Positions 473 through 62,696 of a DNA stretch of 64,000 bases are shown in pieces; positions within the stretch are counted from its first letter, which is position 1, and each line of letters begins with the position of its first letter. The DNA is from an uncultured bacterium (GTDB lineage Bacteria > Armatimonadota > Abditibacteriia > Abditibacteriales > Abditibacteriaceae), in NCBI GenBank assembly GCA_963843795.1, contig CAWJLW010000006.1, positions 2,616,375 through 2,680,374 on the forward strand, read 5' to 3'. The notes under the pieces are model-generated. The model saw only the letters and a list, made by a program, of their open reading frames with translations, was not told the DNA's origin and made no database searches. A program made the position numbers and the translations under genes.

Positions 473-1978
473 TTACAATCCATACAAATCGCCGTACTTA
501 CCTTGCAAGTACTTGCAGTAAGGTTCGATATCCAAAGCGCGGCCCGTCGCGCGCTCGACCAATTCCGCCGCCGTCCACACGCTGCCGCTTTGATACACAT
601 TATCACGCAACCATCCCAAAAGTGCGCTGTATTCGCCGCGCGCAATATCGTTGGAAATTTGCGGTTGAGCTTTTAAGGCGGCTTCATAGAATTGAGCCGA
701 TAAAATGTTGCCGAGCGTATAGCCTTGAAACGCGCCGCCAATCGTGCCGCCAAACCAATGTACATCTTGCAAACAACCGTCGCTGTCATCATCGGACGCA
801 ACACCTAAATCGGAACGGTAACGTTCGCGCCATGCATCGGGCAAGTCGGAAACTTCGAGCGAACCGTCCAACAAGGCCAACTCTAAATCGAAACGAATCA
901 TGACGTGCAGATTGTAAGTCACTTCGTCGGCATCGGTGCGAATGAGGGACGGCGCCACGCGATTGATGGCGCGATACCAATCGTCAACGGAAACATCACC
1001 AAGTTGAGACGGAAATTGATTTTGCAAATCCGAAAACCAGTGTGCCCAGAAACCTCGCGAGCGACCGACCAAATTTTCCCACAAGCGCGATTGCGCTTCG
1101 TGAACGCCCGAACTGGTGCCATTGGCCAGCGGCGTGGCTTCGTAATCGAGATTGATATTCTGCTCATAAAGCGCGTGCCCAGCTTCATGAAACGTCGAAA
1201 ACAAGGCTTCGGTCAGGTCGTCGTCTTTAACGCGCGTAGTGATGCGCACATCGCCCAGAGAAAACTTGGTCATGAACGGATGCGGCGTTTCGTCCTGACG
1301 ACCACGCGTGAAATCGTAGCCAAAACGGCCGATCACGGTTTCGGCCCACGCGATTTGTTCGGCACCGGGATAATTGCGACCTAAAAACGCCGTTTTCGGC
1401 TCGTCTTTTTCGGCAATTTGTGCGACCATCGGCACCAAACGTTCACGCAGCGGATCGAACATCTTGCGCACGCTTTCGACCGTCATGCCTTCATCGGAAA
1501 AATCGATTAGCGGATCGGCGATGTGCGCGTATCCGGGATAAAAGTTTGCCAATTCGCGCGATAAATCCAAGGTGCGCCTGAAATCGTCTTCGACGCTTTT
1601 CCAATCGTTATCGGGCCGCGCGCGCGTCCAATTTTGATACGCTTCGCTGAGATGATCGCTCAAGCGTGCTTCAAATTCTGCCGGAACCCGCGTCGCGCGC
1701 TCCCATTGTCGTTGCGTGACGCGAATCAAAGCCGCTTCGAAATTTGCGGGGTCGCTATCTTTTTCCAGCGGCTGCAATTCATCCAACCAGCGCCCAACTT
1801 GCGGATCAATAAATTTTTCGTGTGCCAAACGATTCAAGGTCGATAGCTGACGACCACGCGCAGGGGCGCCGCCGGGCGGCATATAGGTCGATTGATCCCA
1901 GTGCAAAAGCGCGCTCGCGCCGTGCAAATCATCGACTTCGCGCAGACGATTTTTCAAGTTTTCCAAAGTTGTATTCAT
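473..1978 (-). CDS. Carboxypeptidase Taq family (peptidase M32)
   Basis: 501 aa; WDQSTYMPPGG N-terminus, HPF, HEAGH zinc motif, HEAQS, IRTDADE, GCLQDVHW, YTLGN. Confidence 0.95.
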   Translation of the reverse strand: MNTTLENLKNRLREVDDLHGASALLHWDQSTYMPPGGAPARGRQLSTLNRLAHEKFIDPQVGRWLDELQPLEKDSDPANFEAALIRVTQRQWERATRVPAEFEARLSDHLSEAYQNWTRARPDNDWKSVEDDFRRTLDLSRELANFYPGYAHIADPLIDFSDEGMTVESVRKMFDPLRERLVPMVAQIAEKDEPKTAFLGRNYPGAEQIAWAETVIGRFGYDFTRGRQDETPHPFMTKFSLGDVRITTRVKDDDLTEALFSTFHEAGHALYEQNINLDYEATPLANGTSSGVHEAQSRLWENLVGRSRGFWAHWFSDLQNQFPSQLGDVSVDDWYRAINRVAPSLIRTDADEVTYNLHVMIRFDLELALLDGSLEVSDLPDAWRERYRSDLGVASDDDSDGCLQDVHWFGGTIGGAFQGYTLGNILSAQFYEAALKAQPQISNDIARGEYSALLGWLRDNVYQSGSVWTAAELVERATGRALDIEPYCKYLQGKYGDLYGL

Positions 1979-6206: not shown

Positions 6207-6236
6207 AAGCGCGCTGCAAGTACTTGCAGCGCGCTT
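6207..6236. terminator. Palindrome-centred hairpin between the converging channel gene and mscL
   Basis: AAGCGCGC-TGCAAGTACTTGCA-GCGCGCTT, a perfect 30-bp palindrome. Confidence 0.65.
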
Positions 6237-15800: not shown

Positions 15801-18142
15801 ACGGTCAGGTCAATGAAAAAATCGCCGGTTAAATTAGCGCCGGTTGCATCCTTGGCATCGAACGAACCTTGCACATAATATTGACCATCGCCCGCGATGG
15901 CATTGCTTTGACGTTCGTGACCACCCTTGGCAGGAGGACCATCGTCATAAACCGACATCGGAAGATCGGAAACCACAACTTGGGGCTGCTGCTCGACGGC
16001 AGTCGTGACACGAAGGCCATTGTTGACTTTAGTGGTCAGGCCGACAAAGCTCGGCTGGTCGGCGTCACGAATCGAAACGGTTGCTGAAGTTCCTGTAAAG
16101 GGATTGCCGGGAGGCTGCACGATAGGAACCGGGGTCGCAGTGGGCGCTGGGCCAGCGACCGGCGTTGCAGTCGGGACTGCAGTGGGCGTGGTGCCCGGTT
16201 CGCCCGTATTAAGACCGGTTTCCTGTTCAGAAATCACTGCGGCAATGATCAATTTGCCGCCAGGCGCCAAACCTTCTTCAAAAGTGCGCGGTGCAAAAAA
16301 CGGTGCCTGACGGCCCGGTGCCACAAAAGGAGTGCGCTGACTGCCTACGCCGACTGGCACCAGTAATGGCGGCGTAAAATCCTGCGCCTGTGTTGTCCAA
16401 ATATCGTGTGTGGCTGCCTCGCCGACGCCACCACCCGGATTAACAACCGGCGGAGTGGGGCTTTGCGCATTGTCTCCCGGACGACCCGCGCGAATGCGCT
16501 GTGAGGTAAAAGCAATCGGCGCAATGACCGCAGACGAATTACTGGAGCGTGCAAATGCCGGTTCGCGATCTGACGAGCGATCTTCTGTGATACCAGTTTT
16601 ATTTCCCGCAACCGAGCCTGCCGAAGAAAACAGGTTCGATTCAACGCGCGCCGGAACCGGATTTTGTGTACTGCCTTCAAAAGCGGGACGCGGCAAAGTC
16701 GGCGGGCTCAAAATCAAAACGGTACTGCGCGTTTCAATAGCCAGAGACCAAATGTTCAAATCGTTGAAACCGTCGGTCGAGTCAATGCGGCTGTTGCTTT
16801 GAAAAGCCAATTTTTCGGTGAATGGAGCGGAATTGAAACCGACTTGAAAATTACCGGTCGTTGAAGCCGAAGGATAATCGTCGGCATCATTCACCGTGCC
16901 ACCGCGCGCCAGAGGGTTGGTAATCTGCCGCTTGAATTGGCCAGTCGCCGAGTTCATAGCGAAAATGCGTCGTCCGGTCGTTAACACAGTTGTCTGTGTG
17001 GCTGTGCCCGAAACCGTTACATCGCGGTTCGAAGAAAAGAACATGATGCCCGCATTGACTTGCGAATAGCTGGGATGCCGGTCGTCGGTAAGGTTGCCAT
17101 CCACATCTTGCGGATCGGTCGGCGTGGGCGCGCTGGCCTGTTTGCCATCGGGATCGCCGGTCAAACGGCGCACCGAAAGTGCGTTGCCGTTGGGGTCAAT
17201 GGTGAAAATATCGAAGCGACCGCCCACGTTAGCTATCGCATCATTGTTGCGCCCCGGCGCTACATTGGAAGCAAAAGCGATACTGCCGCCATCGGGACTC
17301 CAGGACGGGTCTAACTTTTGACCTGGGAAAAAAGTGACTTGTGTCGGGGTTTGCGCCGTGCGTCCAATGAAGTTGGTGACAATCGACAACTGAGTGACCG
17401 AAGCCGAAAACACATCGACATAAGCCAGACGATTGCCATCGGGCGACCACGTCGGAGCGCGCTGATCGCGAGCCGCGTCTACACCAAAACCGGTGACCTG
17501 CTGGGCACGGGAGCCATCGCGACGCATGATCCAAATATGATATTTCTTGTTGGTGCTAAAGCCACGCGAATCCAAAACACCATCGCCGTTGGCATCAATG
17601 CCATTGGACGAAAACGCGATATAATCGGAAGTCGGCGGGCGATAAGTCGGTTCGCGCTCATCGCTGACCGTGTTGGGCGTCAGGTCAACTTCGGTCAAAG
17701 GAAACTGGCGCGCGGTGAAACTACTGCCGCTTCTGCTCACGCCGCGCAATGATGCCTGACGCGCACGACGCTGACCGTATTCGGCCACTAGCTGCGGCAA
17801 TTTGTCCCAATCCATTACCTGATGCGCCGCTGCTTTATTGACGTCCTTCGGCGCTGGCTTTGTAACAGCAGTGTCGCTTTTTTGCGCCAAGGCCCACCAA
17901 CTGCCGCCCACAACAAGCGCTACCAGACACGCTGCAAGTACTTGCGGATGCGCGTAAGCCGCACGACGCGCGCGCTGCGTGTTTTTCTGCGCACTCTCGC
18001 GTTTTTGAGCGACACCTTTACGAGCGCTGCTGTGATGAGTGCCCGTTGGAAGCGTGCGCGGTTGCGAAGTCGTATCTTCCTGAGCAGAAGGCGAAGCGCC
18101 CAGAAAAACTTGCTGCCAGAATCGGGAAAGACGGTCGTTCAT
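12805..18142 (-). CDS. Very large (~1,780 aa) membrane-anchored/secreted protein with PD40/TolB-like beta-propeller repeats and carboxypeptidase-regulatory-like beta-sandwich domains; broken by an in-frame TGA (14873-14875) and a +1 frameshift (~13890)
   Basis: PTWSPDG/PSWSPDG repeats, SISGRV..., P/T linkers; ORF-track pieces 14873-18253 and 13838-14647 share a frame; AAAGGA RBS before ATG 18142 (start uncertain). Confidence 0.75.
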
Positions 18143-18543
18143 AAATTTCCTTTGGCGAATCGTCCCAAAGCGGGATCGTCGCTTTCTCAATGAAGAAACA
18201 ACGCGCTCACTCATAAAGCAAACGCGCAAAAATTCAATAAAATCCAACGGCAATTCCGCAAGCGAAATCGCACCTAAAATTCTCGAATCCAGAACATTTT
18301 TGCCTTTATATTGACAAAAATTATGGACATCGTAGAAAATTTGGCGATTGGTTCGACAGTATAGCCGCCAAATTGTTCCATCTCAATCGCTGTGCGTTTC
18401 TTTTTTCCAAACCGTGTGCAAACTGTGTGATGCGCCGCGTTCAATCGAGCAGATTTGCACGCTGCCAAATGCACAACGCACCTGCAGGTACTTGCAGGTG
18501 CGTTTTTTAATTATTCTGTGTAGTCAGTTTGTTTGGCCACGAG

Positions 18544-19764: not shown

Positions 19765-21678
19765 TCAGCGCCAGTCGCCCTCATTCGATTCGCGAAAAGC
19801 GCGACGCCTGGCACGTAACTTTTCGGCAGGCCAGCGCAACGGCTTTGGCAGGGAAGGGCGCGCAACGCGCGGCTCCCAGCTCGGACTCCAATCATCGGCC
19901 CGCTGTTTTTCCCGCTTCGCTTCGGGTATTTGCACCGAAATCGGTTTTTTAATGATGGGCTTTTCAACTGGAGAGGAGAAAAGAATTGGTTCAGACACCG
20001 TAGCCGGTTCGGCAGCAAACGTTTGCGCAGCGGCGATTTGGGCAGCGAGCGGCTCGATGGCATTTGCGGTTTGTCGTTTGGCGCGCGCTTCCCACCCTCC
20101 CCAGTTCAAGTTTTCGACCACAATGAGATAAAAGCCAAACCACAGGAAAAGGGCATCGAACAGCGCCCAGAAATAGTTCACTGCCGCGCCATAGCCCGAA
20201 ACGGGGTTGTGCGAAAAACTAAAAACCAGACCAATCGAAAGAGCTGTCGCGATCACGATTTGCGGCTTGTAAACCGCCCAAGGTTTTTCGCGCTCGTACT
20301 TTTTGATTGTCACCACAAAGCCCAGACTGTGCTTGAACAGCGATGAGAAAAACGCGGCGGTGTAAGTTGGAAACGAAACCACATCCAGCACCAAACTTTT
20401 CACCGGATAGCGAAACATTTTCAAGAACAACACGAAGTTGCCCAGCATCATCGGTGCGTAAATCAAGGTCAAAAACCACAGATTGTTCGGTTTAATCAGC
20501 GACACGCCCAGAAACAAATATGGTAGCGGCGCCATCATCAAAATTAAATCGCGCAAACCAATGAGATAATAGGTCGCCGAAAGCAGATAATGCAATTTTT
20601 GTTTAAGCGTCAGCGGGCCGAAAAACAATTGTTTGAAATAACTTCCCGTAACGTCAAAATTGCCTTTGCTCCAGCGTTGCTGCTGCGTGAAATATTGTTT
20701 AAGCGAACTCGGCGCCGCGCCCAGTGCAAGTACTTGCGGCATGAAAACGCCGCGCCGTCCCTGCAAATGCAAGTTCAAAGAAGTCGCGTAATCCTCGGTA
20801 ATATAATGCGGATCGAAACCATTGACTGCATCCAGCGCGCTGCGGCGAATCGCGAAGTTGGTGCCGCATAAAAACAAGGCGTTATCGTGACCTTTGGCCG
20901 GACAAATATGATCGAAGAAAAAGATTTGATGCGCCGCTGCGGCTTTGGCCACCCAGGTTTCCTCGTTTTTGTAGCGTTGCGGGCTTTGCACCCAATCGAC
21001 ATCGTTTTCGACAAAAGGCTTGGTAATTTCGAGCAGAAATTCGGGTAAAGCGGCGAAATCGGAATCGAAAATAATATCCAGCGTGTTGTGCGCGTCCGGC
21101 GTCGGCGTTTGTTGCAGTGCGTTGTTGATGTTGCCCGATTTGAAATGGCCCGGCACCGACCTCGCGATATGTTCAGCGCCCAGTTCGGCGCACAGCGCTT
21201 CAATCTCCTGCCAGTTTTCCTTGCGCGCCACTTTGCCATCGTTGAGCACAAGTACTCGCGGCGGATGAAGTGGGTCGATTTCTTTCGTGTAAACGCGAGC
21301 CGTTTCCTGTGCCGCGAGAATAGTTTCGCGCACGATTTGCGCTGGTTCGCCACACACGCAAACAAATAAGTTGCAACGCAACTCTCGAGAACGATTGAGA
21401 TGGGGCCAGCTTTGATATTGGCGCGGCCACAGCGAATAAAACATCCCGTATAAATGCAAAATCGAATGCAATTCAGCCACAAAAAGCAGCAAGGCGAAAA
21501 CGATTAGCGCGGGCGTTGTATTGATGTAAGTAACGCGAAACACCAGATAAATCGTAAGCCACAGTGCGCCCAGCGTGGCAATCGCACCACGCATCCAACC
21601 ACGCCAGCGTAAAACACCTATTTTCGCTTGTGATGCCGATTGCGCGATGGCTTTTTGGCCATCAAAAGTTGCATTCAT
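19765..21678 (-). CDS. Processive GT2 glycosyltransferase, cellulose-synthase (BcsA)-like
   Basis: HFKSGNIN, FDSDF (DxD), VQSPQ, FLCGT, TED, QQQRW (QxxRW); TM helices on both sides; no PilZ motif seen; start uncertain. Confidence 0.88.
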   Translation of the reverse strand: MNATFDGQKAIAQSASQAKIGVLRWRGWMRGAIATLGALWLTIYLVFRVTYINTTPALIVFALLLFVAELHSILHLYGMFYSLWPRQYQSWPHLNRSRELRCNLFVCVCGEPAQIVRETILAAQETARVYTKEIDPLHPPRVLVLNDGKVARKENWQEIEALCAELGAEHIARSVPGHFKSGNINNALQQTPTPDAHNTLDIIFDSDFAALPEFLLEITKPFVENDVDWVQSPQRYKNEETWVAKAAAAHQIFFFDHICPAKGHDNALFLCGTNFAIRRSALDAVNGFDPHYITEDYATSLNLHLQGRRGVFMPQVLALGAAPSSLKQYFTQQQRWSKGNFDVTGSYFKQLFFGPLTLKQKLHYLLSATYYLIGLRDLILMMAPLPYLFLGVSLIKPNNLWFLTLIYAPMMLGNFVLFLKMFRYPVKSLVLDVVSFPTYTAAFFSSLFKHSLGFVVTIKKYEREKPWAVYKPQIVIATALSIGLVFSFSHNPVSGYGAAVNYFWALFDALFLWFGFYLIVVENLNWGGWEARAKRQTANAIEPLAAQIAAAQTFAAEPATVSEPILFSSPVEKPIIKKPISVQIPEAKREKQRADDWSPSWEPRVARPSLPKPLRWPAEKLRARRRAFRESNEGDWR

Positions 21679-21978: not shown

Positions 21979-22016
21979 AAATAGCGCCCCTGCAAGTACT
22001 TGCAGGGGCGCTATTT
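21979..22016. terminator. Palindrome-centred hairpin after the deacetylase gene
   Basis: AAATAGCGCCCC-core-GGGGCGCTATTT with an A tract on the left (U tract on the minus strand). Confidence 0.75.
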
Positions 22017-26389: not shown

Positions 26390-28321
26390 TTAGCCCTGCC
26401 CCGAACGCCCTACAACCTGCGCCGCGAACATATCCTGGGCCAACGCCAATATATCTTCCTCTTCGTCATCGTCGTTTTCTTCGACTAAGGGCGCTTCCTC
26501 TAACACCGTTTTGGGCTTGGGCGCGGCCAAACGAAATCGCAACATATGGGGCGTAGCCAAACATTCATTCAGCACCTGCTCAAATGGCAAACGGCGCGCC
26601 GCTTCGCAGGCTTTTTCGTAGTGAAATTCCTTGCGGAATTCCAGAATCGCTTCTTTATCTGTGAATTCGACCGGCAACGCATCGTGCAAATACGCTACAG
26701 CCGTGACGCCGATCTTCTTTTTTACGCGCACCAAAACTGCGGGCCACAATTCACGGAATTCTTCCAAATTGGAAATGCGACGCCCTTTCTTTCGCGACTT
26801 CGGCGCGACCGGAACAACTTCGGTCACAGCTTCCTTTTCGCTTTCGACCGGCGCGTTTTCTTCAATTTCTGCCGCAACTTCGACTGGCGCTTCTTGCGTT
26901 GAAATTTCTTCTTCAATTGGCGCACTGATTTCTTCGCTGACGGTTTCTTCTGGCGCGCTTTCGTCTTCTACGGGCGCAACTTCGGCTGTATCTTGCGCCG
27001 ACGCACTTGCTTGATGCGGCACTTCGTCCGGCGTGAACACAATTGGCGCTTCTGCAAGTACTTGCGGCGCGTTTTGCGGCGTTTCAACGGGCGCTTCCTC
27101 AATTGGCGAAACGGGCATTTCGACCGCGCGCAAACGCGGTGGCGCAGACGTAGGAATTGTCGCAGGTGGCGCGATGTGATTCACGGACGCGGTGCCATTA
27201 GAAGTCGTAGCAACAGCGCTTGGCAACGCAGTTTCGGGCGTGTTTTCGGTCGCGGCGCGCACCAGAGCGAGTTCGAGAATCAAGCGATGGTCGGTCGCGT
27301 CTTTGATATCTTTTTCTGCCATGCGCAAGGTTTCGACGCAGCGCAGCAAGCGCGCGCGGCCCATCGCCTGCGCCAACTGCTGATGACGCGCGCGTTCTTC
27401 TTCGTCGTGCGGCGAGGCATCGAAACCAACCGTCAATAAAAGTGCGTCGCGCGTGTAAGCGATCAGATCGCGCGTCAGTTGGCGAAACGCGACGCCTTCT
27501 TCGGTCGCTTGCTCAATCAAACCCAATGCGCCAGCGGCATCGCGCGTGGCCACGGCGTTCATGAGTTGGCTCAAAAGTTCGCGCGAAACCGTGCCCAAAA
27601 CCAGGCGCACATCGCTTTGCGAAATGTGGTCGTCCGAAAACGCGCGTACTTGTTCAAGCAAAGTCAAAGCATCACGGAGGGCGCCATCGGCTTGTTGCGC
27701 GATCAAACGCGCTGCGTCTTCGTCTAACCCGAGATTTTCTTTTTCAGCAACCATCTGCAAGCGTCCGACAATATCGGATGGCCCGACGCGACGGAAATCA
27801 AAGCGCTGACAACGACTGGAAATTGTGGTCGGAACTTTATGAATTTCGGTTGTAGCGAGAATGAAAATCGCGTGCGGCGGTGGTTCTTCCAGAGTTTTCA
27901 ACAAGGCGTTGAAGCTGGAAGTAGAGAGCATATGAACTTCGTCGATGATGTAGATGCGATATTTGGCCGTCACCGGGGCGATATTCACGCGGTCGATGAT
28001 GACTTCGCGCACATTATCGACGCCGGTGTGCGAGGCCGCGTCGATTTCGGTCAAATCCATCACCGGTTGATTTTTGCTCACTGTCACGCAAAATTCGCAT
28101 TGATTGCACGGGGTCGGCGTCGGGCCATTTTCGCAATTCAGGCATTTGGCCAGTAAACGCGCCGAAGACGTTTTGCCAGTTCCACGCGGGCCGCAGAATA
28201 GATAGGCGTGCGCCACGCGCATCGGTTGTGCGGTGAGTGCGTTGCGCAGAGTGCGCGCGATGTGATCTTGCCCGACGACATCTTCAAAAGTTTGCGGACG
28301 ATATTTGCGGTAAAGCGACAT
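26390..28321 (-). CDS. dnaX: DNA polymerase III subunit gamma/tau
   Basis: LYRKYRPQTFEDVVGQ, GPRGTGKT, EIDAAS, IIDEVHMLS, SRCQ. Confidence 0.97.
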   Translation of the reverse strand: MSLYRKYRPQTFEDVVGQDHIARTLRNALTAQPMRVAHAYLFCGPRGTGKTSSARLLAKCLNCENGPTPTPCNQCEFCVTVSKNQPVMDLTEIDAASHTGVDNVREVIIDRVNIAPVTAKYRIYIIDEVHMLSTSSFNALLKTLEEPPPHAIFILATTEIHKVPTTISSRCQRFDFRRVGPSDIVGRLQMVAEKENLGLDEDAARLIAQQADGALRDALTLLEQVRAFSDDHISQSDVRLVLGTVSRELLSQLMNAVATRDAAGALGLIEQATEEGVAFRQLTRDLIAYTRDALLLTVGFDASPHDEEERARHQQLAQAMGRARLLRCVETLRMAEKDIKDATDHRLILELALVRAATENTPETALPSAVATTSNGTASVNHIAPPATIPTSAPPRLRAVEMPVSPIEEAPVETPQNAPQVLAEAPIVFTPDEVPHQASASAQDTAEVAPVEDESAPEETVSEEISAPIEEEISTQEAPVEVAAEIEENAPVESEKEAVTEVVPVAPKSRKKGRRISNLEEFRELWPAVLVRVKKKIGVTAVAYLHDALPVEFTDKEAILEFRKEFHYEKACEAARRLPFEQVLNECLATPHMLRFRLAAPKPKTVLEEAPLVEENDDDEEEDILALAQDMFAAQVVGRSGQG

Positions 28322-28802: not shown

Positions 28803-28878
28803 ATTGTCCTGAAAAAAGAAAACTTAGCCTTCAAACGCCCTGCAAGTACTTGCAGGGCGTTTGAAAACTTCGTCTCAC

Positions 28879-29033: not shown

Positions 29034-29801
29034 CTAACGATGCCCGACTTCCGATTCCTGTCCTGTCGATTCGAATCGCGACAAATCTTCCAACGGTTTT
29101 TGATTGCCAAACTCTGGCTTTGGCCCTTCGCTGGGCGCCGCCCAACGACAGGCGTTGGCGATGACCGCGAGTACTTGCGGGTTATGATAAGTCGGGTATG
29201 ATTCGTGGCCGGGGCGAAAATAGAAAATCTTGCCCAGTCCGCGCGTCCACGTACAACCGCTGCGAAACACTTCGCCCCCAGCGAACCACGAGACGAAAAT
29301 CAGTTCGTCGGGTTGGGGAATATCGAAAAATTCGCCATACATTTCTTCGGCTTCAATTTCAATGAACGGCCCGACGCCGCGCGCAATCGGATGACCCGGT
29401 TGCACGCACCAGATGCGTTCGGTTTCGTTCGCTTCGCGCCAGCGCAAATCGCAACTGGTGCCCATCAACTTCTTGAAGATTTTCGAGAAATGACCGGAAT
29501 GCAACACGATTAAACCCATGCCTTCCAGCACACGTTTGTGCACGCGATCCACAATTTCATCGCTCACGTCGCCGTGCGCCATGTGGCCCCACCACGTCAA
29601 AACATCGGTGTTGGCCAAAACTTCCTCGGTTAAACCGTGTTCGGGTTCGTCCAAAGTGGCAGTTTGGACGGTGAATTCGTCCTGCAAGTACTTGCCGATG
29701 GCGTTATGCATTCCATCGGGATAAATCTTGGCGATATATTCGGATTTCTTTTCGTGACGGTATTCGCCCCACACCGTGACGCGCAATGGATTTTGTGCCA
29801 T
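29034..29801 (-). CDS. ThuA (trehalose utilization) domain protein
   Basis: [44 protein letters not shown]. Confidence 0.92.
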
Positions 29802-32001: not shown

Positions 32002-32069
32002 ATTCAAGCGACCACAGCAAAAAAAGCGCCCTGCAAGTACTTGCAGGGCGCTTTTCGCGTTTTTGCGGC

Positions 32070-34138: not shown

Positions 34139-34729
34139 ATGAATGAAACCATTGCGGCGATTTTAGTCGGCGGCCACAGCACGCGCATGGGACGCGACAA
34201 AGCAAATTTAACGCGCGACGGCGTGTCGTGGCTCGAATGCACGGCGCGCGTGGCCGCTAATTGTGAGCTGCAAGTACTTGCAGTGGGACGCGAACAGCCA
34301 CACGATTGGCCGCATAATTTAAAAGTTGAATTTATCGCCGATGCGTTGCCAAATTGCGGGCCGCTGGGCGGTTTGCTGGCCGCGCTGCGCTGGGCCAAAG
34401 TCCACGAATTCCATAGCGTTCTGGCGCTACCGTGCGATTTACCTCAATTGAATGAAGATGCGCTGAAATGGATTTTGGGGCAAAAGCGCGGACGCGATGG
34501 AATTGCGGTGACGCGAGAAGAACAATTGGAACCGTTATTTGCGATTTACGATGTGGGTTTAATGGAAGAGGTCGCCGAGAGTTTGGAAAGTGGACGACGT
34601 TCGTTGCATGGTGTGATTGAAAAAAGCGAATTTGAAATTGTCGCTTGTCCATCTGAATTGAAAAGCGCGCTGTGGAATTGCAACACGCCTGACGATTGGG
34701 CTCGATTGATAAGCAAAGGAAGAACGTAA
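34139..34729 (+). CDS. mobA: Molybdenum cofactor guanylyltransferase
   Basis: ILVGGHSTRMGRDKA, GPLGGL, PCDLP, EPLFAIY, NCNTPDD. Confidence 0.88.
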   Translation: MNETIAAILVGGHSTRMGRDKANLTRDGVSWLECTARVAANCELQVLAVGREQPHDWPHNLKVEFIADALPNCGPLGGLLAALRWAKVHEFHSVLALPCDLPQLNEDALKWILGQKRGRDGIAVTREEQLEPLFAIYDVGLMEEVAESLESGRRSLHGVIEKSEFEIVACPSELKSALWNCNTPDDWARLISKGRT

Positions 34730-34739
34730 ACTTGGGATT

Positions 34740-35834
34740 ATGACGACGACAACAGAAAATACTATTCGCGTCGAATTGGGCGAGCGTTCTTACGAGGTGC
34801 GCATTAAAGCCGGTTCTCTGAGCAATTATGCAGCGCAAGAGTGGGACGAAATCGCGCTTTTATCAAACGAAAGCGTGATGCCTTTGTATGGACGCGATTT
34901 TGTCCAACGGCGCAACAATTTGGGTTTAAAAACGATTGAGATTGTCGCGCCCGATGGCGAAAGCGCCAAGAACTTGGAAATGATGGCGCGCGCTTACGAC
35001 GAACTAGCGCAAGCACGTTTGACGCGGCGCGGCGCGATTGTGGCAATTGGCGGCGGCGTGGTCGGCGATTGGGCCGGCTTCGTCGCCGCGACGTGGATGC
35101 GCGGTGTGGACTTTGTGCAAATTCCAACAACATTACTGGCGATGGTCGATTCGAGCGTGGGCGGCAAAACCGGCATCAATCACCAGAGCGCCAAGAATTT
35201 AATTGGCGCTTTTCATCAGCCAAAATGCGTGATTATCGACCCGCAAGTACTTGCCACCCTTCCCACCCGCGAACTTCATGCGGGTTTGGCCGAAGTTATC
35301 AAATATGGCGTGATTGCCGATAGCGAATTTTTCGATTGGCTGGAAAATCATAACAATCTGCTGGATGATAGCGCGGCATTGGAGCATCTCATCGCGCGCA
35401 GCGTGCAAATCAAAGCTGATGTCGTGGGTGAAGACGAGCGGGAAAGCGATAGTTCGGGGCGACGCGCGATTTTGAATTATGGTCACACCGTGGGCCATGC
35501 CATCGAAGCAACCGCGACTTATGGCAAGTACTTGCACGGCGAAGCCATCTCCATCGGCATGACGGTCGCTGCTCAGTTATCGATTGATTTGGGAATTGTG
35601 CATGCTGGCGAAAAATTATTGCAACGCCAAACGCAACTTTTTCATAAATATGATCTGCCGACGCGTGTGCCGGACGAATGCGCATGGGACGATTTATTGA
35701 AAGCGATGGCGCTGGATAAAAAATCGCGTGGCGCGCGTTTAAATTTCGTCTTGCCAACGCGATTGGGCGCAGTCGAAATCGTGCGTAATGTGCCGCACAC
35801 AGCAGTCGAAAACGCCGTTAAAAAATGTCGCTAA
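34740..35834 (+). CDS. aroB: 3-dehydroquinate synthase
   Basis: GGGVVGDWAGF, PTTLLAMVDSSVGGKTGIN, KNLIGAFHQP, LNYGHTVGHAIE, HGEA. Confidence 0.97.
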   Translation: MTTTTENTIRVELGERSYEVRIKAGSLSNYAAQEWDEIALLSNESVMPLYGRDFVQRRNNLGLKTIEIVAPDGESAKNLEMMARAYDELAQARLTRRGAIVAIGGGVVGDWAGFVAATWMRGVDFVQIPTTLLAMVDSSVGGKTGINHQSAKNLIGAFHQPKCVIIDPQVLATLPTRELHAGLAEVIKYGVIADSEFFDWLENHNNLLDDSAALEHLIARSVQIKADVVGEDERESDSSGRRAILNYGHTVGHAIEATATYGKYLHGEAISIGMTVAAQLSIDLGIVHAGEKLLQRQTQLFHKYDLPTRVPDECAWDDLLKAMALDKKSRGARLNFVLPTRLGAVEIVRNVPHTAVENAVKKCR

Positions 35835-41218: not shown

Positions 41219-42259
41219 ATGGCAAAAAACCGCTTGAAAGTGGCATTACTAACCGGTGGCGATAGTTCTGAGCGCGCGGTGTGTTTCGCAACCGCGAGTT
41301 CGGTCGCGAACGCGCTGGATTCCAGTCGGTTCGATGTGACAATTTTCGATGTCTCGCAACCGCAAACCCGCGCTGCCGATCCTTACGGCGGCGACCGCGC
41401 GCTGGGTACGCGTCCGCGCCATGTCATCGTCGGCGTCGATTGGAACACCTTGGTCACGCAGCTTTATATGACCGGTTTCGATGTGGTTTTCCCCGCTTTG
41501 CACGGCGGGCGCGGCGAAGACGGAACATTGCAAGCGCTGCTCGAAATTGCGGGTGTGCCCTATGTCGGCTCGGGGACGCATGCCTGCGCCATTGCGATTG
41601 ACAAGCAGGTTTGCAAATCTTTCATGAGCGGCTATGGCATCGCCGTTCCGCATGGGCGCATTTTCTGGAGCTGGGAACAATGGCAGCGCGAAGGTGACGA
41701 AATGCGCGACCGCCCTTGTGTCGTCAAGCCCAACGCGGGAGGTTCGTCAGTAGCAACAGCGATTTTCGCTCAGGCTCCGGAAGAAGACGCAATGAAAAAT
41801 GCGTTGCAAGCGGCTTTTGACGATGGCAGCGGTGCGCTGGTGGAAGAATTGATAGAAGGAACTGAAGTGACGTGTGCGGTTTTGGGCGCAGGCGAAAGTG
41901 CGCGCGCATTGCCGAGCATCGAAATCGTGCCCAAAGATGATTCCAGCTTTTACGATTACGCAGCCAAATACCAAAGCGGCGGTTCGCAACATTTAATTCC
42001 GCCGCGTTTGGATGGGCAAGTACTTGCCGAAATTGAAAAATGTGCGCTGCGCGCTTTTCGCGCTTTGAAATGTCGCGGCGTGGCGCGCTCGGATTACATC
42101 GTGCGTGCCGATGGCACGCCAGTGTTCTTGGAAATCAACACGTTGCCGGGCATGACTTCGACCAGTTTGGTGCCCGACGCCGCGCGCGCAGCCGGTATCG
42201 AATTCTCGCAACTATTGGAACAATTAATTCAATCGGCGCTGGACAAAAATCGAGGTTAA
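41219..42259 (+). CDS. ddl: D-alanine--D-alanine ligase
   Basis: LLTGGDSSER, LHGGRGEDG, VKPNAGGSS, FYDYAAKY, LEINTLPGMT. Confidence 0.96.
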   Translation: MAKNRLKVALLTGGDSSERAVCFATASSVANALDSSRFDVTIFDVSQPQTRAADPYGGDRALGTRPRHVIVGVDWNTLVTQLYMTGFDVVFPALHGGRGEDGTLQALLEIAGVPYVGSGTHACAIAIDKQVCKSFMSGYGIAVPHGRIFWSWEQWQREGDEMRDRPCVVKPNAGGSSVATAIFAQAPEEDAMKNALQAAFDDGSGALVEELIEGTEVTCAVLGAGESARALPSIEIVPKDDSSFYDYAAKYQSGGSQHLIPPRLDGQVLAEIEKCALRAFRALKCRGVARSDYIVRADGTPVFLEINTLPGMTSTSLVPDAARAAGIEFSQLLEQLIQSALDKNRG

Positions 42260-46714: not shown

Positions 46715-46865
46715 CCCCGCCAATCTCATCTGCAAGTACTTGCGAGCGAAGTTTAAGGTGGCAAAACGCTGTCGCCCCGATTTCTGTGGTTCAGCCCGTT
46801 CAATTCTGCACGCAAGTACTTGCTCATACGGGCAACGTTTCCCGCAACGTCTCAAAGCGAATTTC

Positions 46866-52760: not shown

Positions 52761-54188
52761 ATGGATTCTTACGATTTGGTTGTCATTGGCGCTGGAACTG
52801 GCGGTTTAGTTTCGGCTTTTGCCGCCGACGCTTTGGGCGCGCGCGTTTTGTTGATTGAGCGCGAACGAATGGGCGGCGAATGCTTGTGGAGTGGCTGCGT
52901 GCCCTCGAAAACCCTCATAAAATCGGCACGCGTCTTTGATACCGTGCAGCGCGCAGCAGAATTCGGCGTGCATCTGGAAAAGCCTCGCGTCATCTGGAAC
53001 GCTATCAAATTACGCATTAAAGACGTGCAGGACGACATCAAAAAGCTCGAACGCCAAAGCATGGCCGAATCAAACGTCGAGTTTTGCCTTGGCAGCGCGC
53101 GCTTCATTGACGCACACGTGCTGGAAATCGAAAGTTCATCGCAAACGCGTCGAGTGCACGCGCGCCGCGTCATCATCGCTACCGGTTCCAAAGTGAGCGT
53201 GCCGCAAATTGATGGCTTGATAGAAGCCGGTTTCATCACCCATCAGCAAGTTTTCAATTTGCCCGCACTTCCGCGTCGCTTGGCCATTATCGGCGGTGGC
53301 CCAATTGGTTGTGAATTCGCCCAAGCCTTCGCACGTTTAGGCTGCAACGTGACTTTATTGCAACACGGCGAACGCATTTTGAATAAAGAAGATGAAGACG
53401 TTTCTGAAATTGCGCTTAAAATTCTGCGCGCCGCCAAAGTCGAAGTGCTACTGAATTGCGAAGTAAAAAGCGCTCGCGCCGACGATGACAGCAAGTACTT
53501 GCAGGTGAGCCATGAAGGCGGAACCAAGGAAATCAAAGCGGGACAAATTTTAGTCGCCACTGGCAAAAAGCCCAATATCGACAGTTTGGATTTGCCAAAC
53601 GCCGGCGTAAAATTCAGCGAAAAAGGCATCGAAGTCGATGAACATTTGAAAAGTTCGGTCGCGCATATTTTCGCGTGCGGCGATGTGACGGGTCGCGATT
53701 TATTCACGCACGCGGCCGAACACGAAGCGAAAATCGTCGCACAAAACGCCATGCTGCCAGTTAAAGCCAAAGCTCACAACGCCCCGCTGCCATGGACGAC
53801 ATTTCTCGATCCTGAAATCGCGCGTGTGGGTTTGACCGAAGCTCAAGCACGCCAAAAATGGCGCAATATCCGCGTTTTTCGTCAGGATTTCAAGACCTTA
53901 GATCGCGCAATTATTGAAGGCGAAACGCTGGGCTTTTGTAAAATCGTGACTACAGATTCTGGGCGCATTGTGGGCGCACATATCGTGGGGCCAAACGCCG
54001 GCGAACTGATCGCGCCGTGGACCTTCGCGATGGGCGAAGGCGCATTAATTTCTGAAATGGGCGAAGCGATTTTTGTTTATCCAACCCTTAGCGAAATTAG
54101 CCACCGCACGGGCAACGACTGGTATCAACAACTCTTGAAAAAACCCATGGTGAACCAATTATTAACTTGGTGGACGCAGCGCGCTTAA
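52761..54188 (+). CDS. Pyridine nucleotide-disulfide oxidoreductase (Lpd/MerA-like, without MerA C-terminal Cys pair)
   Basis: VIGAGTGG, GGECLWSGCVPSK, GGGPIGCE, ACGDV, YPTLSE. Confidence 0.9.
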   Translation: MDSYDLVVIGAGTGGLVSAFAADALGARVLLIERERMGGECLWSGCVPSKTLIKSARVFDTVQRAAEFGVHLEKPRVIWNAIKLRIKDVQDDIKKLERQSMAESNVEFCLGSARFIDAHVLEIESSSQTRRVHARRVIIATGSKVSVPQIDGLIEAGFITHQQVFNLPALPRRLAIIGGGPIGCEFAQAFARLGCNVTLLQHGERILNKEDEDVSEIALKILRAAKVEVLLNCEVKSARADDDSKYLQVSHEGGTKEIKAGQILVATGKKPNIDSLDLPNAGVKFSEKGIEVDEHLKSSVAHIFACGDVTGRDLFTHAAEHEAKIVAQNAMLPVKAKAHNAPLPWTTFLDPEIARVGLTEAQARQKWRNIRVFRQDFKTLDRAIIEGETLGFCKIVTTDSGRIVGAHIVGPNAGELIAPWTFAMGEGALISEMGEAIFVYPTLSEISHRTGNDWYQQLLKKPMVNQLLTWWTQRA

Positions 54189-55344: not shown

Positions 55345-56697
55345 TTACGCTTCAACATTCTGTGCGCGTGTCCATTTGCGACATTTGCGCATTGCGTTCG
55401 TCGCCCACAGGCGCGACGGTTTTTCTCTGAGCCAGATACAACACGGTTCTTTAGCGTTCGTATGAAGCCAACGGTTGAGAATCAACATTTCATCCAACTC
55501 GCTTTTCGCGGTAAAAGGGGCGACGGGCGGAGGATCGCTGAAAACATCTTCTATCTCGCGCTTTAATTGCGCCCAATCGTTTTCGCTATCCGCGACAGTA
55601 ACATGACGTCGCACAAGCCCGCCGCACACCAAAAACGCGCTCCAACGCGCACTGCAAGTACTTGCATTGTCGCTTTCATCGTTATGCGATAAAGCGGGCT
55701 GCATAATAATCACGTTATTGTCTTCGCGCATTCGTTTCAAACGCTGCAACCTATCGGCGACATGAGCGATGGCTTCCAGTTGTTCCTTAATTTTGCCCGC
55801 TTCTTCAAAGCGCCATTCGGCAGAGAGTTCGTTCATGCGCGCGCGCATCCGTTCCACGCGCGGCGAAGTGCCTTCGTGCAGCGTTTGCACCAATTCCGCA
55901 CAAATTTGCTGATAATTTTGCGCTTCAATCGCATCGACACACGGCCCGGCGCAGCGTTTGAGTTCGTGATAAAAACAGGCGCGATTCGTGGCATCGGGTC
56001 GCAATTCGCCTTCGCACGAGCGCAGCGGAAACAAGTTGCGCACGGCTTCAAAAGTCCACCACGCAGCGCGCGGCGTCGTAAAAGGGCCGAGATACAAACC
56101 GGGCAGTTCGCCAGCGCGCGGCGGATTATCCAGCGTTTGCCATTCCTGCATTGCACGACGCGCCGCTTCGTTGTTCATCGAACTAAGATGCGTTGGCAAA
56201 GCATCAAAAACGCTTTCCTCGTCTTCATTTTCTTCGCCCGCATCGGCGCACGGTTCGGCGCGCGTGAGGGTCAGGCGCGGAAAAGTTTCGTGCGATAACA
56301 AAAGATACGGATAAACGTCGAAGCGTTTGAGTTGGCGATTGAGAATCGGGCGCAGTTGCGCGATGAGCTTGCGCTCCAAAAGCAGCGCTTCCAATTCGCT
56401 GCCGCAATGACGCACTTCCATGCGTTGAATTTCAGCCAACAAGCGGCGCAACTTGGGCGTGCGTTTATTTTTGGTTTCGGCGAAATACGAGCGCACGCGG
56501 TCGCGCAAAGTTTTCGATTTGCCGACATAAAGCAAGCGATCGTCGATTCCATAAAAGAAATAAACGCCCGGCGTGCGTGGCAGGGCGCGCGCCTGATCGC
56601 GCAACGCGCGGCGACGGCGCGTGTCGATGCGACCTTCAAACGGGCTTTGAACACGGTGAGCGCCGAACGCGCGCAGAGGAGAAGCGGCCATGACCAT
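55345..56697 (-). CDS. UvrC-like (Cho-type) GIY-YIG nuclease with UVR domain
   Basis: LPRTPGVYFF..LLYVGKSKTLRDRVRSYF, ELEALLLE, Cys cluster, RFEEAGKIKEQ; no RNase H-like or HhH C-terminus seen. Confidence 0.85.
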   Translation of the reverse strand: MVMAASPLRAFGAHRVQSPFEGRIDTRRRRALRDQARALPRTPGVYFFYGIDDRLLYVGKSKTLRDRVRSYFAETKNKRTPKLRRLLAEIQRMEVRHCGSELEALLLERKLIAQLRPILNRQLKRFDVYPYLLLSHETFPRLTLTRAEPCADAGEENEDEESVFDALPTHLSSMNNEAARRAMQEWQTLDNPPRAGELPGLYLGPFTTPRAAWWTFEAVRNLFPLRSCEGELRPDATNRACFYHELKRCAGPCVDAIEAQNYQQICAELVQTLHEGTSPRVERMRARMNELSAEWRFEEAGKIKEQLEAIAHVADRLQRLKRMREDNNVIIMQPALSHNDESDNASTCSARWSAFLVCGGLVRRHVTVADSENDWAQLKREIEDVFSDPPPVAPFTAKSELDEMLILNRWLHTNAKEPCCIWLREKPSRLWATNAMRKCRKWTRAQNVEA

Positions 56698-56702
56698 TCA
56701 GT

Positions 56703-57419
56703 TTAGCTTGCCAGTTGCGGTGCAAGTACTTGCGGCGCGATTTTACCAGTTTTCACACGGTAATGTCCAATAATCGGCCAACGATTCAGCGCGTGATCTT
56801 CGCGGCAAACCGAACCGTTGTGAATCACGAAGGGTTCGCCATCTGATGCCACGCCATCGGAAACAATTCCCGTGTGCAAACGGCCTTCACCCGAATTCCA
56901 AAACACGATGTCGCCCGGCTGCCATTGCTTCCAAGTTGAAGCATCGGCTCGTTTGGTGAGAACGTGCGCGTGCGTATCAAAGTATTTCATCTGGTTGGGC
57001 ACGCGGCGATGATCGATGTTGGGATTGGGCGCATTCAAGCCCCATTTGCGCGGATACGATTTCCAGTTTTGCAGCATATCGGCGTGAATGCGCTGCTGCA
57101 AATCAATATCAACGGCGCGCAGGGCGCGCACGATCACATCGGTGCAAGCGCCGCGATTTTCGGGCACATCGCCAAGAGGATAGGCGATAGTTTGATAACG
57201 CGCATCGTAGCGCGTGCCGATTTGCTCTTTGGCGGCTTGAACAATTTGACGCGCGCGCGGATTGGGAATTTCGATGCGCCGCGCGACCGCGACATTCGGG
57301 TCGCCAGGTTGCAAAAATGAGAGTTCGAGAACATATTGGCCACCAAAGAAAGCTGCGCTGCTGATAGCGAAAAATGCGGAAATCGCGAACCGGTTGCGAG
57401 GCGAAGAAATTGGTTTCAT
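56703..57419 (-). CDS. DUF1287 family protein
   Basis: YPLGDVPENRGACTDVIVRALR, NIDHRRVPN, WQPGDIV, HTGIVSD; start uncertain. Confidence 0.85.
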   Translation of the reverse strand: MKPISSPRNRFAISAFFAISSAAFFGGQYVLELSFLQPGDPNVAVARRIEIPNPRARQIVQAAKEQIGTRYDARYQTIAYPLGDVPENRGACTDVIVRALRAVDIDLQQRIHADMLQNWKSYPRKWGLNAPNPNIDHRRVPNQMKYFDTHAHVLTKRADASTWKQWQPGDIVFWNSGEGRLHTGIVSDGVASDGEPFVIHNGSVCREDHALNRWPIIGHYRVKTGKIAPQVLAPQLAS

Positions 57420-60500: not shown

Positions 60501-62370
60501 GCACCGCGCGCTCCAAAGCCGCTTCGCCATCTTCAATCGGGAAAGTCGCTTTGAGCACTGCCGACTTGAATTCATCGCCGCAAGTACTTGCCCCATCGCG
60601 CAGCCACGCCAGTTGCGTATCGGTGAGGACCGGCGATTTGAATTGGATGCGGCGGCAGCTTTGCGGCGTTTCGCTCCACAAGTTCGAACGCGGGCCGATA
60701 AAGGTTTGCAGGCTCATCACCAGTTTTTCGCGCAACGGGTCAATCGGCGGATTGGTGACTTGCGCGAAACGCTGGCGGAAATAATTATAAAGCGAGCGCG
60801 GCTTATCGGACAAAACGGAAAGCGGCGTGTCGTCGCCCATCGAACCGGTTGGCTCCGAAGCCGATTGAATCATCGGCTTGACGAACTCGTCCATGTCCTC
60901 GGTCGTGTAGCCGAACGCTTTCAATTGCTCGAGCAATTCTTCGCCGGTGCAAGCACTTCGCAGGGGCAATAGACGACATTTCCAGCGTGTCGGCTTTGAT
61001 GAGATAATCGTTGAGCCATTGCTGATACGGTTGCGCCGCCGCGTAACGCGCCTTAATATCGTCGTTGCGCATAATTTCGCCGGTTTCGGTGTCCAGCGCG
61101 ATAATTTGGCCCGGCCCCAGACGACCTTTTTCGATCACTTTGGCGCCGTTCAAATCAATCACGCCGACTTCGCTACCCACGACTAGCAAGCCATCGTCGC
61201 TGAGTTGATAGCGGCTCGGACGCAGACCGTTACGATCTAAGCTGGCACCAATGATGCGGCCATCGGTAAACGAAAGCGCGGCCGGGCCATCCCAGGGCTC
61301 TTGCAAACACGCGTGATATTCGTAAAACGCGCGCACTTCGTCGCTGAGATCGGGATCGTTCTGGTGTGCTTGCGGCTGCATCATCAAAACCGTGTGCAAG
61401 AGGTCGCGCCCGCCCAAAACCAACGATTCCAGCACGTTATCGAGCGCGCTCGAATCGCTGTTACCCGGCTTGAATCAGGGGCCGCAATTGTTCAATCGAA
61501 GCGTGACTGTCCCAAATCGTGGCGTCTTGCGACAATTCCGCCGCGCGCAAGCAGTTGGCGTTGCCTTGCAAGCGTGTTGATTTCGCCATTGTGCGCCAGA
61601 AAACGAAACGGTTGCGCCAAAAACCAAGTCGGAAAAGTGTTGGTCGAATAACGCTGATGATACAAAGCCAACGTCGAAACGTAATCTTCCTGCGCCAAAT
61701 CGAGATAAAACTTGTCCAGTTGCGGCGCGACCATCAAACCTTTATAAACATGGTTTTGGTCGAAAAACTGGGAATGTAAAAACCTTCGATTCCGGCTTCG
61801 TGCACGCCACGCTCCATCGCTTTGCGCATCAGGTAACAGGTGCGCTCGAAAGTGGCGTCGTCCATGTTATCGTAGCGCACCAAGAGCATTTGACGAACGT
61901 GTCGGGCAATTATCGCGCGCGCGGTCGCCCAAGGCGTCGCGGTCGACCGGCACTTTGCGCCACTCCAAGAAAATCAAATCGCTTTGTGCGACGACATCTT
62001 CGCAGATGCGATACGCGCGATGGCGCATCTCGTCATTTTGCGGAAAGAACATCATCGCGACCGCGAGTTCGCTGTCGCTTTTGAGCAGTTTGCCTTGTCC
62101 TTTGCCCAAACCGCGTCGCAGCATCTGAGCGGGGATTTGGGTCAAAATTCCCGCGCCATCGCCCGTTTTGGCATCCGCGGCCACGGCACCGCGATGGGTG
62201 AGGCGGCACACCGCTTCGATGCCTTTGCGCACGATGCGATGAGATTTTTCACCGCGCGTCGAGGCGACGAAACCAATGCCACACGCATCGCGTTCCATTT
62301 CGGGCAACCACAGGCCTTTACCGTCTGACTCGGGCATTCCATAGCGCAAACCCATCGAAGACTGATTCAT
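57588..62370 (-). CDS. gltB: Glutamate synthase large subunit, fragmented by many single-base frameshifts
   Basis: [83 protein letters not shown] spread over at least 8 ORF pieces. Confidence 0.93.
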
Positions 62371-62696
62371 AATCTCTCCCAAACCGCTCTGCAAGTACTT
62401 GCAGAGAACAAAACGGTGACGAACACCGCGATATTTTTATTTCCGACTTCCATCAATTTAATGGCAAATAACTCGATAACAACGCCAGCGAACTCGCAAA
62501 TGCGCCTACTCATACTTATCACGCAGCCATATCGGAATTGTTACGGGAATGTTTCGTGTCATGTAACAATTTTTGGCCTTTCAGTGTGCCCGATAAAGCC
62601 GCGTAAAACCGCAGCGTGTAGCTGACAATTTCTAATAATTCTTTTCACACCGTTAATTTTCGCACTTTTGGCGCACAATTGGCGAAGTGCGCTGAT

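Follow-up and report, generated by a model that had tools for sequence, protein, structure and literature searches.

A 12-bp palindrome, GCAAGTACTTGC, occurs 2,567 times in the genome of an uncultured member of the Abditibacteriaceae (GCA_963843795.1; 4,299,948 bp in 11 contigs, hereafter G000), where an order-2 Markov model expects 0.3 copies, and sequence comparisons support its origin by substitution at permissive positions under pressure exerted at the DNA level. Our starting point was a 64,000-nucleotide stretch of contig CAWJLW010000006.1 (positions 2,616,375 to 2,680,374, forward strand; the window), in which the motif is found 43 times although the same model predicts only 0.005 copies. 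Related species carry dialects of their own around a GTAC core, and we cautiously favour the reading that the motif marks DNA as 'self' within a species during natural transformation and is spread by molecular drive. The system is apparently unpublished: no description was found in the literature on the motif words and the taxon, the coverage of which is mainly open-access, and supplementary tables of oligomer surveys could list the words.

The motif is real and genome-wide. Its family heads the 6-, 8-, 10- and 12-mer lists when the palindromes of G000 are ranked, and its density reaches 597 per Mb (0.60 per kb, or about one copy per 1.7 kb). The outer bases (CT..AG) are softer than the rest of the palindrome, and one-mismatch variants total only 506 (337 by transition) against the 2,567 perfect copies. 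Both half-sites are required, as perfect sites contain 5,134 right arms and only 130 right arms stand beside a left arm with two or three mismatches. Copies on the 3.6-Mb contig are under-dispersed (variance/mean 0.46 versus 0.75 ± 0.08 in a gene-aware null, 20-kb bins), and their density runs unbroken through the skew switch near 1.52 Mb, at 26–36 per 50 kb. The longest motif-free gaps, of 26.5 and 25.7 kb, are islands of insertion sequences and restriction genes (transposase-like genes recognized by eye from translations, and a type I methylase). Half of the tRNA and tmRNA genes (24/48) have a copy at most 100 bp away and none has one inside, and no dense cluster that might hint at an autoregulated reader gene was found in G000. 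An assembly artefact is ruled out by a short-read contig that crosses the copy at 46732 without a difference (from a run that is perhaps the source sample itself) and by independent genomes with dialects of their own; for strain-level gains and losses, the host sequence in that run is near-identical and thin. Also motif-free in G000 are a contractile-tail-like cluster (C3:2,600-27,300) and the high-GC, virB-like last 23 kb of C6, both named by eye from translations.

The copies divide into 750 genic, 1,796 intergenic (70%) and 21 at gene edges or contig ends, which corresponds to 0.205 per kb in genes versus 2.82 per kb between genes, a 14-fold difference. At least one copy is present in 605 of the 3,426 called genes, and 29% of copies are genic; the gene set comes from a self-trained script (85% coding), and the coding count is approximate because the caller drops some N-terminal leaders (QVLA is seen in prepilin leaders). 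Coding copies are read as QVLA (493), KYL (143) or ASTC (114) depending on the frame, and the codons of the motif are used 15-fold (KYL) to more than 200-fold (QVLA, ASTC) above expectation. QVLA is spelled CAA GTA CTT GCN in 500 of 563 cases (89%, 0.4% expected), ASTC by the exact motif in 114/132 (0.2% expected) and KYL as AAG TAC TTG in 191/312 (4.1% expected). The same peptides are the three most over-represented tetrapeptides of the proteome, namely QVLA (563 versus 38.5), ASTC (132 versus 4.0) and KYLQ (105 versus 5.0), and permuted controls stay near expectation. Codon choice and peptide over-representation had both been proposed as checks by a sequence-only reading of the window, and both came out in its favour, as did its impression that valine here is mostly GTG, GTC or GTT (0.385, 0.291 and 0.248; GTA 0.076). 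Where other codons spell QVLA, its count (63 versus 38.5; permutation mean 43) stays close to background, which together with the codon choice rules out selection on the amino acids.

The sequence-only reading had further held that the palindrome is written into conserved proteins, in all three frames, without insertion. All twelve peptides that it named are present, each one base downstream of where it had been placed. Eight of the nine named sites that could be aligned with orthologues show no insertion (both aroB sites, mobA, ddl, the M32 peptidase, gltB and the disulfide reductase, with ThuA two residues shorter); the UvrC-like site does not conform. Genome-wide, sampled stretches of 18 relatives yielded 636 alignments between orthologues and, within these, 94 usable coding sites, with 64 gapless, 15 in which G000 is at least three residues longer and none in which it is shorter, compared with 85% gapless, 4.3% longer and 2.4% shorter among control windows. 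The excess of longer sites has a P of about 1e-5, or 0.008 without the ASTC frame, in which six of 13 sites are longer in G000 and three are gapless. For all three frames together, the claim that nothing was inserted therefore goes too far. In a second set, drawn from two metagenomic lineages, 19 of 25 G000 coding sites are gapless, and the relatives' own sites are mostly so (70/95 in G009, 11/19 in G006). Clean lengths do occur, with four extra segments of exactly 4 residues among the 94 sites and one clean 12-nt gap among the 25. Such segments may be loops that took up the motif or true 12-bp insertions, which protein identities of 50–70% cannot separate, and some of the asymmetry is expected if the motif gathers in unconstrained loops. 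The conserved setting was not upheld, as most copies are intergenic and the coding sites fall where conservation is low (identity of 27% there versus 58% over the whole alignment); motif density, 0.29 per kb in proteins of 45–55% identity, drops to 0.08 per kb in those above 75%. The central proposal of the reading, point substitution wherever the protein tolerates it under DNA-level pressure, is supported by the codon bias, the gapless sites of both sets and the finding of a relative's dialect at the same codon.

Between genes, the motif lies at a median of 29 bp past a stop codon, and perfect arms of at least 15 bp surround it at 62% of 295 convergent sites versus 8% of 270 divergent sites. 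The long intergenic hairpins carry T-rich tails on both strands, and 466 of them show 272 distinct 9-nt arm extensions. The flanks of the intergenic copies covary (0.69 complementary versus 0.57 expected), whereas the flanks of the 750 coding copies do not (0.359 versus 0.344). Intergenic copies have likely been co-opted as the centres of intrinsic terminators, a second job. Because both arms are needed and the coding copies lack base-pairing covariation, the signal would be read as double-stranded DNA by a symmetric, probably dimeric, protein.

Comparison within the family (27 genomes, G000 included) and beyond shows that relatives lack the exact word. In 40 relatives it was counted 0–3 times per genome, while its core AGTACT occurs 2,813–4,733 times in six of the 27 family genomes, including G000, and 1–285 times in the other 21. 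G001, of the same genus, uses the dialect CAAAGTACTTTG (1,231 copies), G009, G015 and G019 use TCGAGTACTCGA (2,770, 2,510 and 2,261 copies) and G012 uses the looser YGAGTACTCR. In these five genomes, as in G000, the word is palindromic; the one GTAC dialect with a non-palindromic core is that of G006, in which AGTACGGTCGA is found 2,412 times (1,188 + 1,224) without strand bias. The dialects are mutually exclusive, species versions built around GTAC. A GTAC-free and non-palindromic word, CGTGGCTGS, also genic, occurs 1,884–3,282 times in G007, G016 and G018 versus 77–297 times in the other 24, and co-locates with GTAC-type sites in only 1/17 and 1/19 cases, off-centre. In samples of 11 and 13 loci, respectively, the asymmetric words of G006 and G007 favoured neither strand. 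No motif was found in G017, which belongs to the same genus as dialect-bearing relatives. For one G000 protein, the nearest homologues that have a name bear the labels Abditibacteriaceae, Abditibacterium or Abditibacteriota, and the branching order of the genera is left unsettled by a single AroB tree.

Two metagenomic lineages, at about 70% nucleotide identity and with a guanine-plus-cytosine (GC) content of 60–70%, bear NCAAGTACTTGN and share sites with G000 by position. Their loci were chosen by a 16-bp seed, and no shared site is the seed. The relative's AGTACT stands at offset 0 in 12 of 25 G000 coding sites (0.23 expected), and shared VL dipeptides carry it in 9/14 cases where G000 has AGTACT versus 14/198 where it does not; GTA codons overall are kept in 12/167 cases of the same comparison. 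Co-location within 6 nt was also seen with G009 (6/35, 0.44 expected), G006 (3/29, 0.15 expected) and G001 (1/3), and in 0/8 cases with G012; in gltB, the codon at which G000 carries the motif is occupied in G001 by the G001 dialect. Either old sites persisted while their flanks changed, or sites arose a second time at the same permissive positions, and under either origin the sharing of positions requires pressure on the DNA.

Several side observations concern the distribution of these words. GTAC words are nearly absent from G005, G008, G013, G014, G018, G022 and G042 and from the phylum families f11, f35 and f19; in GTAC-poor genomes AGTACT occurs once in 6 Mb, and CGTACC 1–10 times per strand versus about 1,000–2,000 for a control word. 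A block of G000 that adjoins comM and a UPF0102 gene (C6:2,954,990-2,965,300; L675) has sister-type words at its coding sites (CAAAGTACTTTG three times, the G006 type once, and hybrids) and the G000 form in its spacers, and from these words it looks like an acquired block that is being overwritten. Viral contigs L426, L445, L458 and L489 (GC 0.38–0.45) contain words similar to GTGCAAGTACTTGCAC, several in every 10 kb, which may be operators or promoter elements of phages; no link to this host was seen. Of 134 and 119 viral loci (flanks: 80 of each), not one had both a host-like GC content and closely packed copies.

How would such a tag work? A sequence-specific reader would favour the entry or recombination of tagged DNA, and recombination would then propagate each point mutation that makes a site, provided that the protein or spacer can bear it. 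The tag, a lineage-specific signal, would favour the species' own DNA, and the terminator role of the intergenic copies would have been gained secondarily. The density near that of the uptake signal sequence (USS) and the DNA uptake sequence (DUS), the even spacing, the coding share, the enriched peptides, the permissive positions, the terminators, the absence from islands and the dialects all support this reading. USS and DUS densities are 0.80–0.89 per kb, and 34.5% of DUS are genic in N. meningitidis (PMC2817400). The likeness extends to spread by substitution, a preference for weakly conserved sites, a use in terminators, rarity in acquired DNA and species dialects that keep one core, as in the DUS of the Neisseriaceae (GCCGTCTGAA, with eight dialects and the receptor ComP) and the USS of the Pasteurellaceae (PMC2817400, PMC3630211). 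Several defining traits of these systems (an over-represented, evenly spread word of substitution origin, a low genic density with hairpins, and dialects sharing a core) are found here. The differences are another sequence and phylum, and a two-arm palindrome at the hairpin centre in most dialects, where only G006 has the non-palindromic core; the role in transformation is a prediction.

A number of observations weigh against a transformation tag. Known uptake sequences are non-palindromic (PMC2817400); the palindromic form and the receptor that was not found are the mismatches with them. ComP (PF16732) was detected in 0/5 genomes in a search whose control was also silent, no reader protein was found, and no protein was seen to track the motif. 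Competence of these bacteria is predicted from genes, and these do not discriminate, since ComEC is present in 27/27 genomes of the family, both those that carry a motif and those that lack one. Inverted pairs account for 148 of 227 sampled AGTACGGTCGA copies in G006, and all 74 pairs of the sample are equally spaced, a regularity that copying of a hairpin or a site for a dimer would likewise explain. Finally, 15 of the 94 coding sites lie inside segments found only in G000.

The gene content of G000 includes ComEA, ComEC, DprA, ComM, ComF-like and RadA-like proteins, MutL and a type IV pilus operon. Several pilus genes (C6:385,800-402,600) and gltB (57591-62394 in the window) are broken by frame breaks. 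A pseudogenised pilus is ruled out, as the breaks match one-base differences at four places in single short-read contigs (depth 2–4) and comparable splits occur in 7/107 conserved genes, as errors in long reads would produce. Pilins of G000 matched only N_methyl and DUF1559 families, and atlas and PDB comparisons were generic or empty; the genome has 58 prepilin-type N-methyl genes, mostly of 240–350 residues. A GTAC glycosylase of the R.PabI type was detected in 0/27 genomes, again with a silent control, and a search for a stand-alone small GIY-YIG (Ssn-like) nuclease in G000 gave only two UvrC-size matches.

Among the alternatives, an abundant dimeric chromosome protein (nucleoid-organizing, SMC-related or acting in nucleoid occlusion) whose sites are each selected would explain the strict need for two arms (5,134 right arms in perfect sites versus 130 with a damaged partner), the even spacing and the old sites common to several lineages. 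A precedent is SlmA, which as a dimer reads the 12-bp palindrome GTGAGTACTCAC with the same AGTACT core (PMC3020112). We nevertheless consider it unlikely. SlmA has 52 peaks and avoids the terminus region (PMC3020112), whereas the 2,567 sites here continue across the skew switch without a gap; none of the motifs tested shows up in 17 of the 27 family genomes; and weak selection at each site would poorly account for thousands of amino-acid changes.

A methyl-directed repair ratchet, of the type proposed for the highly iterated palindrome HIP1 (GCGATCGC), is also improbable, and rather more so. A methylase would mark GTAC and biased repair would build sites up to about one per kb, the level at which the model predicts saturation (PMC4390886). 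The candidate is an orphan beta-class N6/N4 methylase with a conserved target-recognition region (C6:2,517,368-2,518,135; L091, L677), intact in 20 of 27 family genomes, broken in two and not found in five. MutL is present, the seven GTAC-motif genomes all have the intact enzyme, and GTAC is iterated in those seven and near absent in others (0 in 61 kb of G005; GGTACC 3–7 per genome in 5/5). The enzyme may methylate the GTAC core. Thirteen further genomes, however, have the intact enzyme and no GTAC-cored motif, and one methylase cannot set five flanks, nor the GTAC-free word of G007, G016 and G018. GTAC as its target is a prediction: at loci around 56 outside homologues the observed/expected ratio of GTAC, 0.52, is not separated from the 0.60 of control loci. 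GTAC is the lowest or second-lowest of the 16 palindromic 4-mers in 36/56 of these loci, GTAC is also avoided in families of the phylum that lack this methylase, and the homologues' names carry no specificity. A protein labelled Abditibacterium utsteinense is 77% identical to the enzyme, homologues 57–63% identical occur in Verrucomicrobiota and a few other phyla, and the G020 copy groups with those of G000 and G001, which suggests transfer.

With HIP1 and the alternate iterated palindromes of cyanobacteria, the motif shares a frequency of about one per kb, its presence in coding and non-coding DNA, and spread by substitution (PMC4390886, PMC13756078). A candidate methylase link and a possible role in transformation, which HIP1 raises up to 100-fold (10.1101/2024.09.10.611283), are further parallels. 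As is typical of such words, it is the most enriched palindrome of its genome and has spread mostly without insertions or deletions. It differs in its 12 bp versus 8, its variation between species of one genus, its 14-fold intergenic excess, its use in terminators and its asymmetric dialect; HIP1's own word is the most depleted palindromic 8-mer of G000 (33 versus 645). The system works like DUS/USS and HIP1 and, as these are defined, is a member of neither. Nor does it resemble Chi or KOPS, which are asymmetric, replication-skewed words, as the G000 motif is palindromic and the G006 and G007 words are unskewed.

Systems of repetitive extragenic palindromes (REP, REPIN) and their RAYT transposases place hundreds of hairpins between genes, after their ends. 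Copying of a REP-like or miniature inverted-repeat (MITE-like) hairpin by a transposase, with in-frame 12-bp insertions as the coding copies, would agree with the 70% intergenic share, many of these copies lying in long perfect palindromes, with the excess of longer segments in G000, its four exact 4-residue cases and single clean 12-nt gap, and with the fixed-spacing pairs of G006. A RAYT-like Y1 gene does exist in G000 (C6:751,600-752,520; L244), with a fragmented type ISP restriction gene nearby, but alongside it are its own, unrelated GTAG REP doublets. The copies are not confined to extragenic sites beside a cognate RAYT with conserved arms: 750 are coding, 64/94 and 19/25 of the tested sites are gapless, the 466 long hairpins have 272 different arm extensions, and sites are shared at offset 0 with differing flanks. 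We therefore regard this explanation as highly improbable. A terminator or stability hairpin acting only as RNA, with coding copies as by-products (or an amino-acid preference), can be nearly discounted and is for the coding copies already largely refuted: intergenic copies do cluster past stop codons with compensatory arms, but coding flanks do not covary, non-motif QVLA is near background and terminators need no exact 12-mer.

The copies that bear on the argument within the window are listed in Table 1. A search of the window against Rfam returned the SRP RNA and two tRNAs only, and the motif matched no RNA family.

Table 1. Selected motif copies and host genes in the window (coordinates of the 64,000-nt stretch)
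Feature	Position	Strand	Basis or comparison
Motif in M32 carboxypeptidase, CKYLQ	505..516		Gapless versus the two PDB chains shown
Intergenic 30-bp perfect palindrome around motif, most frequent arm type	6207..6236		Sequence
Intergenic perfect palindrome around motif, between convergent genes, outer arm T-rich	9046..9095		Fold -39.2 kcal/mol
Extra coding copy, PQVLA, in PD40-repeat open reading frame 14873-18253	17934..17945		Position and family match
Motif in GT2 glycosyltransferase, PQVLA	20726..20737		Position and family match
Terminator-like hairpin; 4-nt loop is the GTAC of the motif	21979..22016	-	Predicted hairpin
Motif in dnaX, PQVLA, residue 419, past the conserved N-terminal domain	27054..27065		Position and family match
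Terminator-like hairpin around motif, between two tRNA genes	28826..28869	-	Predicted hairpin
Motif in ThuA-family gene, GKYLQ	29684..29695		G000 two residues shorter than the four closest orthologues
Terminator-like hairpin around motif	32022..32055	+	Predicted hairpin
mobA-like gene, hosts one copy	34139..34729	+	NCBIfam match under the curated cut-off; start from our own gene caller
GCAAGTACTTGC in mobA, LQVLA; arms reach CTGCAAGTACTTGCAG	34270..34281		Gapless versus the sole available orthologue, G001
aroB, 3-dehydroquinate synthase, hosts two copies	34740..35834	+	TIGR01357, over cut-off
Motif in aroB, QVLA frame (CCG CAA GTA CTT GCC; DPQVLATLP)	35243..35254		Gapless in all 24 other covering rows
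Motif in aroB, KYL frame (YGKYLHGEA), adjoining HGEA	35524..35535		0/26 covering rows shorter by more than one residue
Motif in ddl, GQVLA	42016..42027		Gapless in 5/5 orthologues
Motif in disulfide reductase, SKYLQ	53491..53502		No insertion
Motif in UvrC-like gene, ASTC (the exception)	55654..55665		Within a 12-residue segment missing from G006
Motif in DUF1287 gene, PQVLA	56722..56733		Position and family match
Motif in gltB, ASTC	60580..60591		No insertion; this codon carries the G001 dialect in G001

To our knowledge, uptake sequences have been reported only from two proteobacterial groups. We put forward, tentatively, that the Abditibacteriaceae have a third, independently evolved system of DNA self-recognition for transformation, in which the tag, with its GTAC core that is possibly methylated, would be recognized by receptors of a new family. 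If so, its flanks form dialects that switch between palindromic and asymmetric, and it would bridge DUS/USS and HIP1, the function of which is a question of 30 years' standing; foreign dialects would then mark and date gene transfers between species. The motif is a species barcode for binning and for detecting transfers. In 605 of the 3,426 called genes, proteins have been rewritten by a DNA-level process, through which QVLA has become the tetrapeptide with the greatest over-representation. With five or more dialects in one family, a switch between palindromic and asymmetric forms, motif-free relatives and lineages purged of GTAC, the family offers a natural experiment that allows the reader to be sought by comparative genomics and molecular drive to be tested against selection or biased repair.

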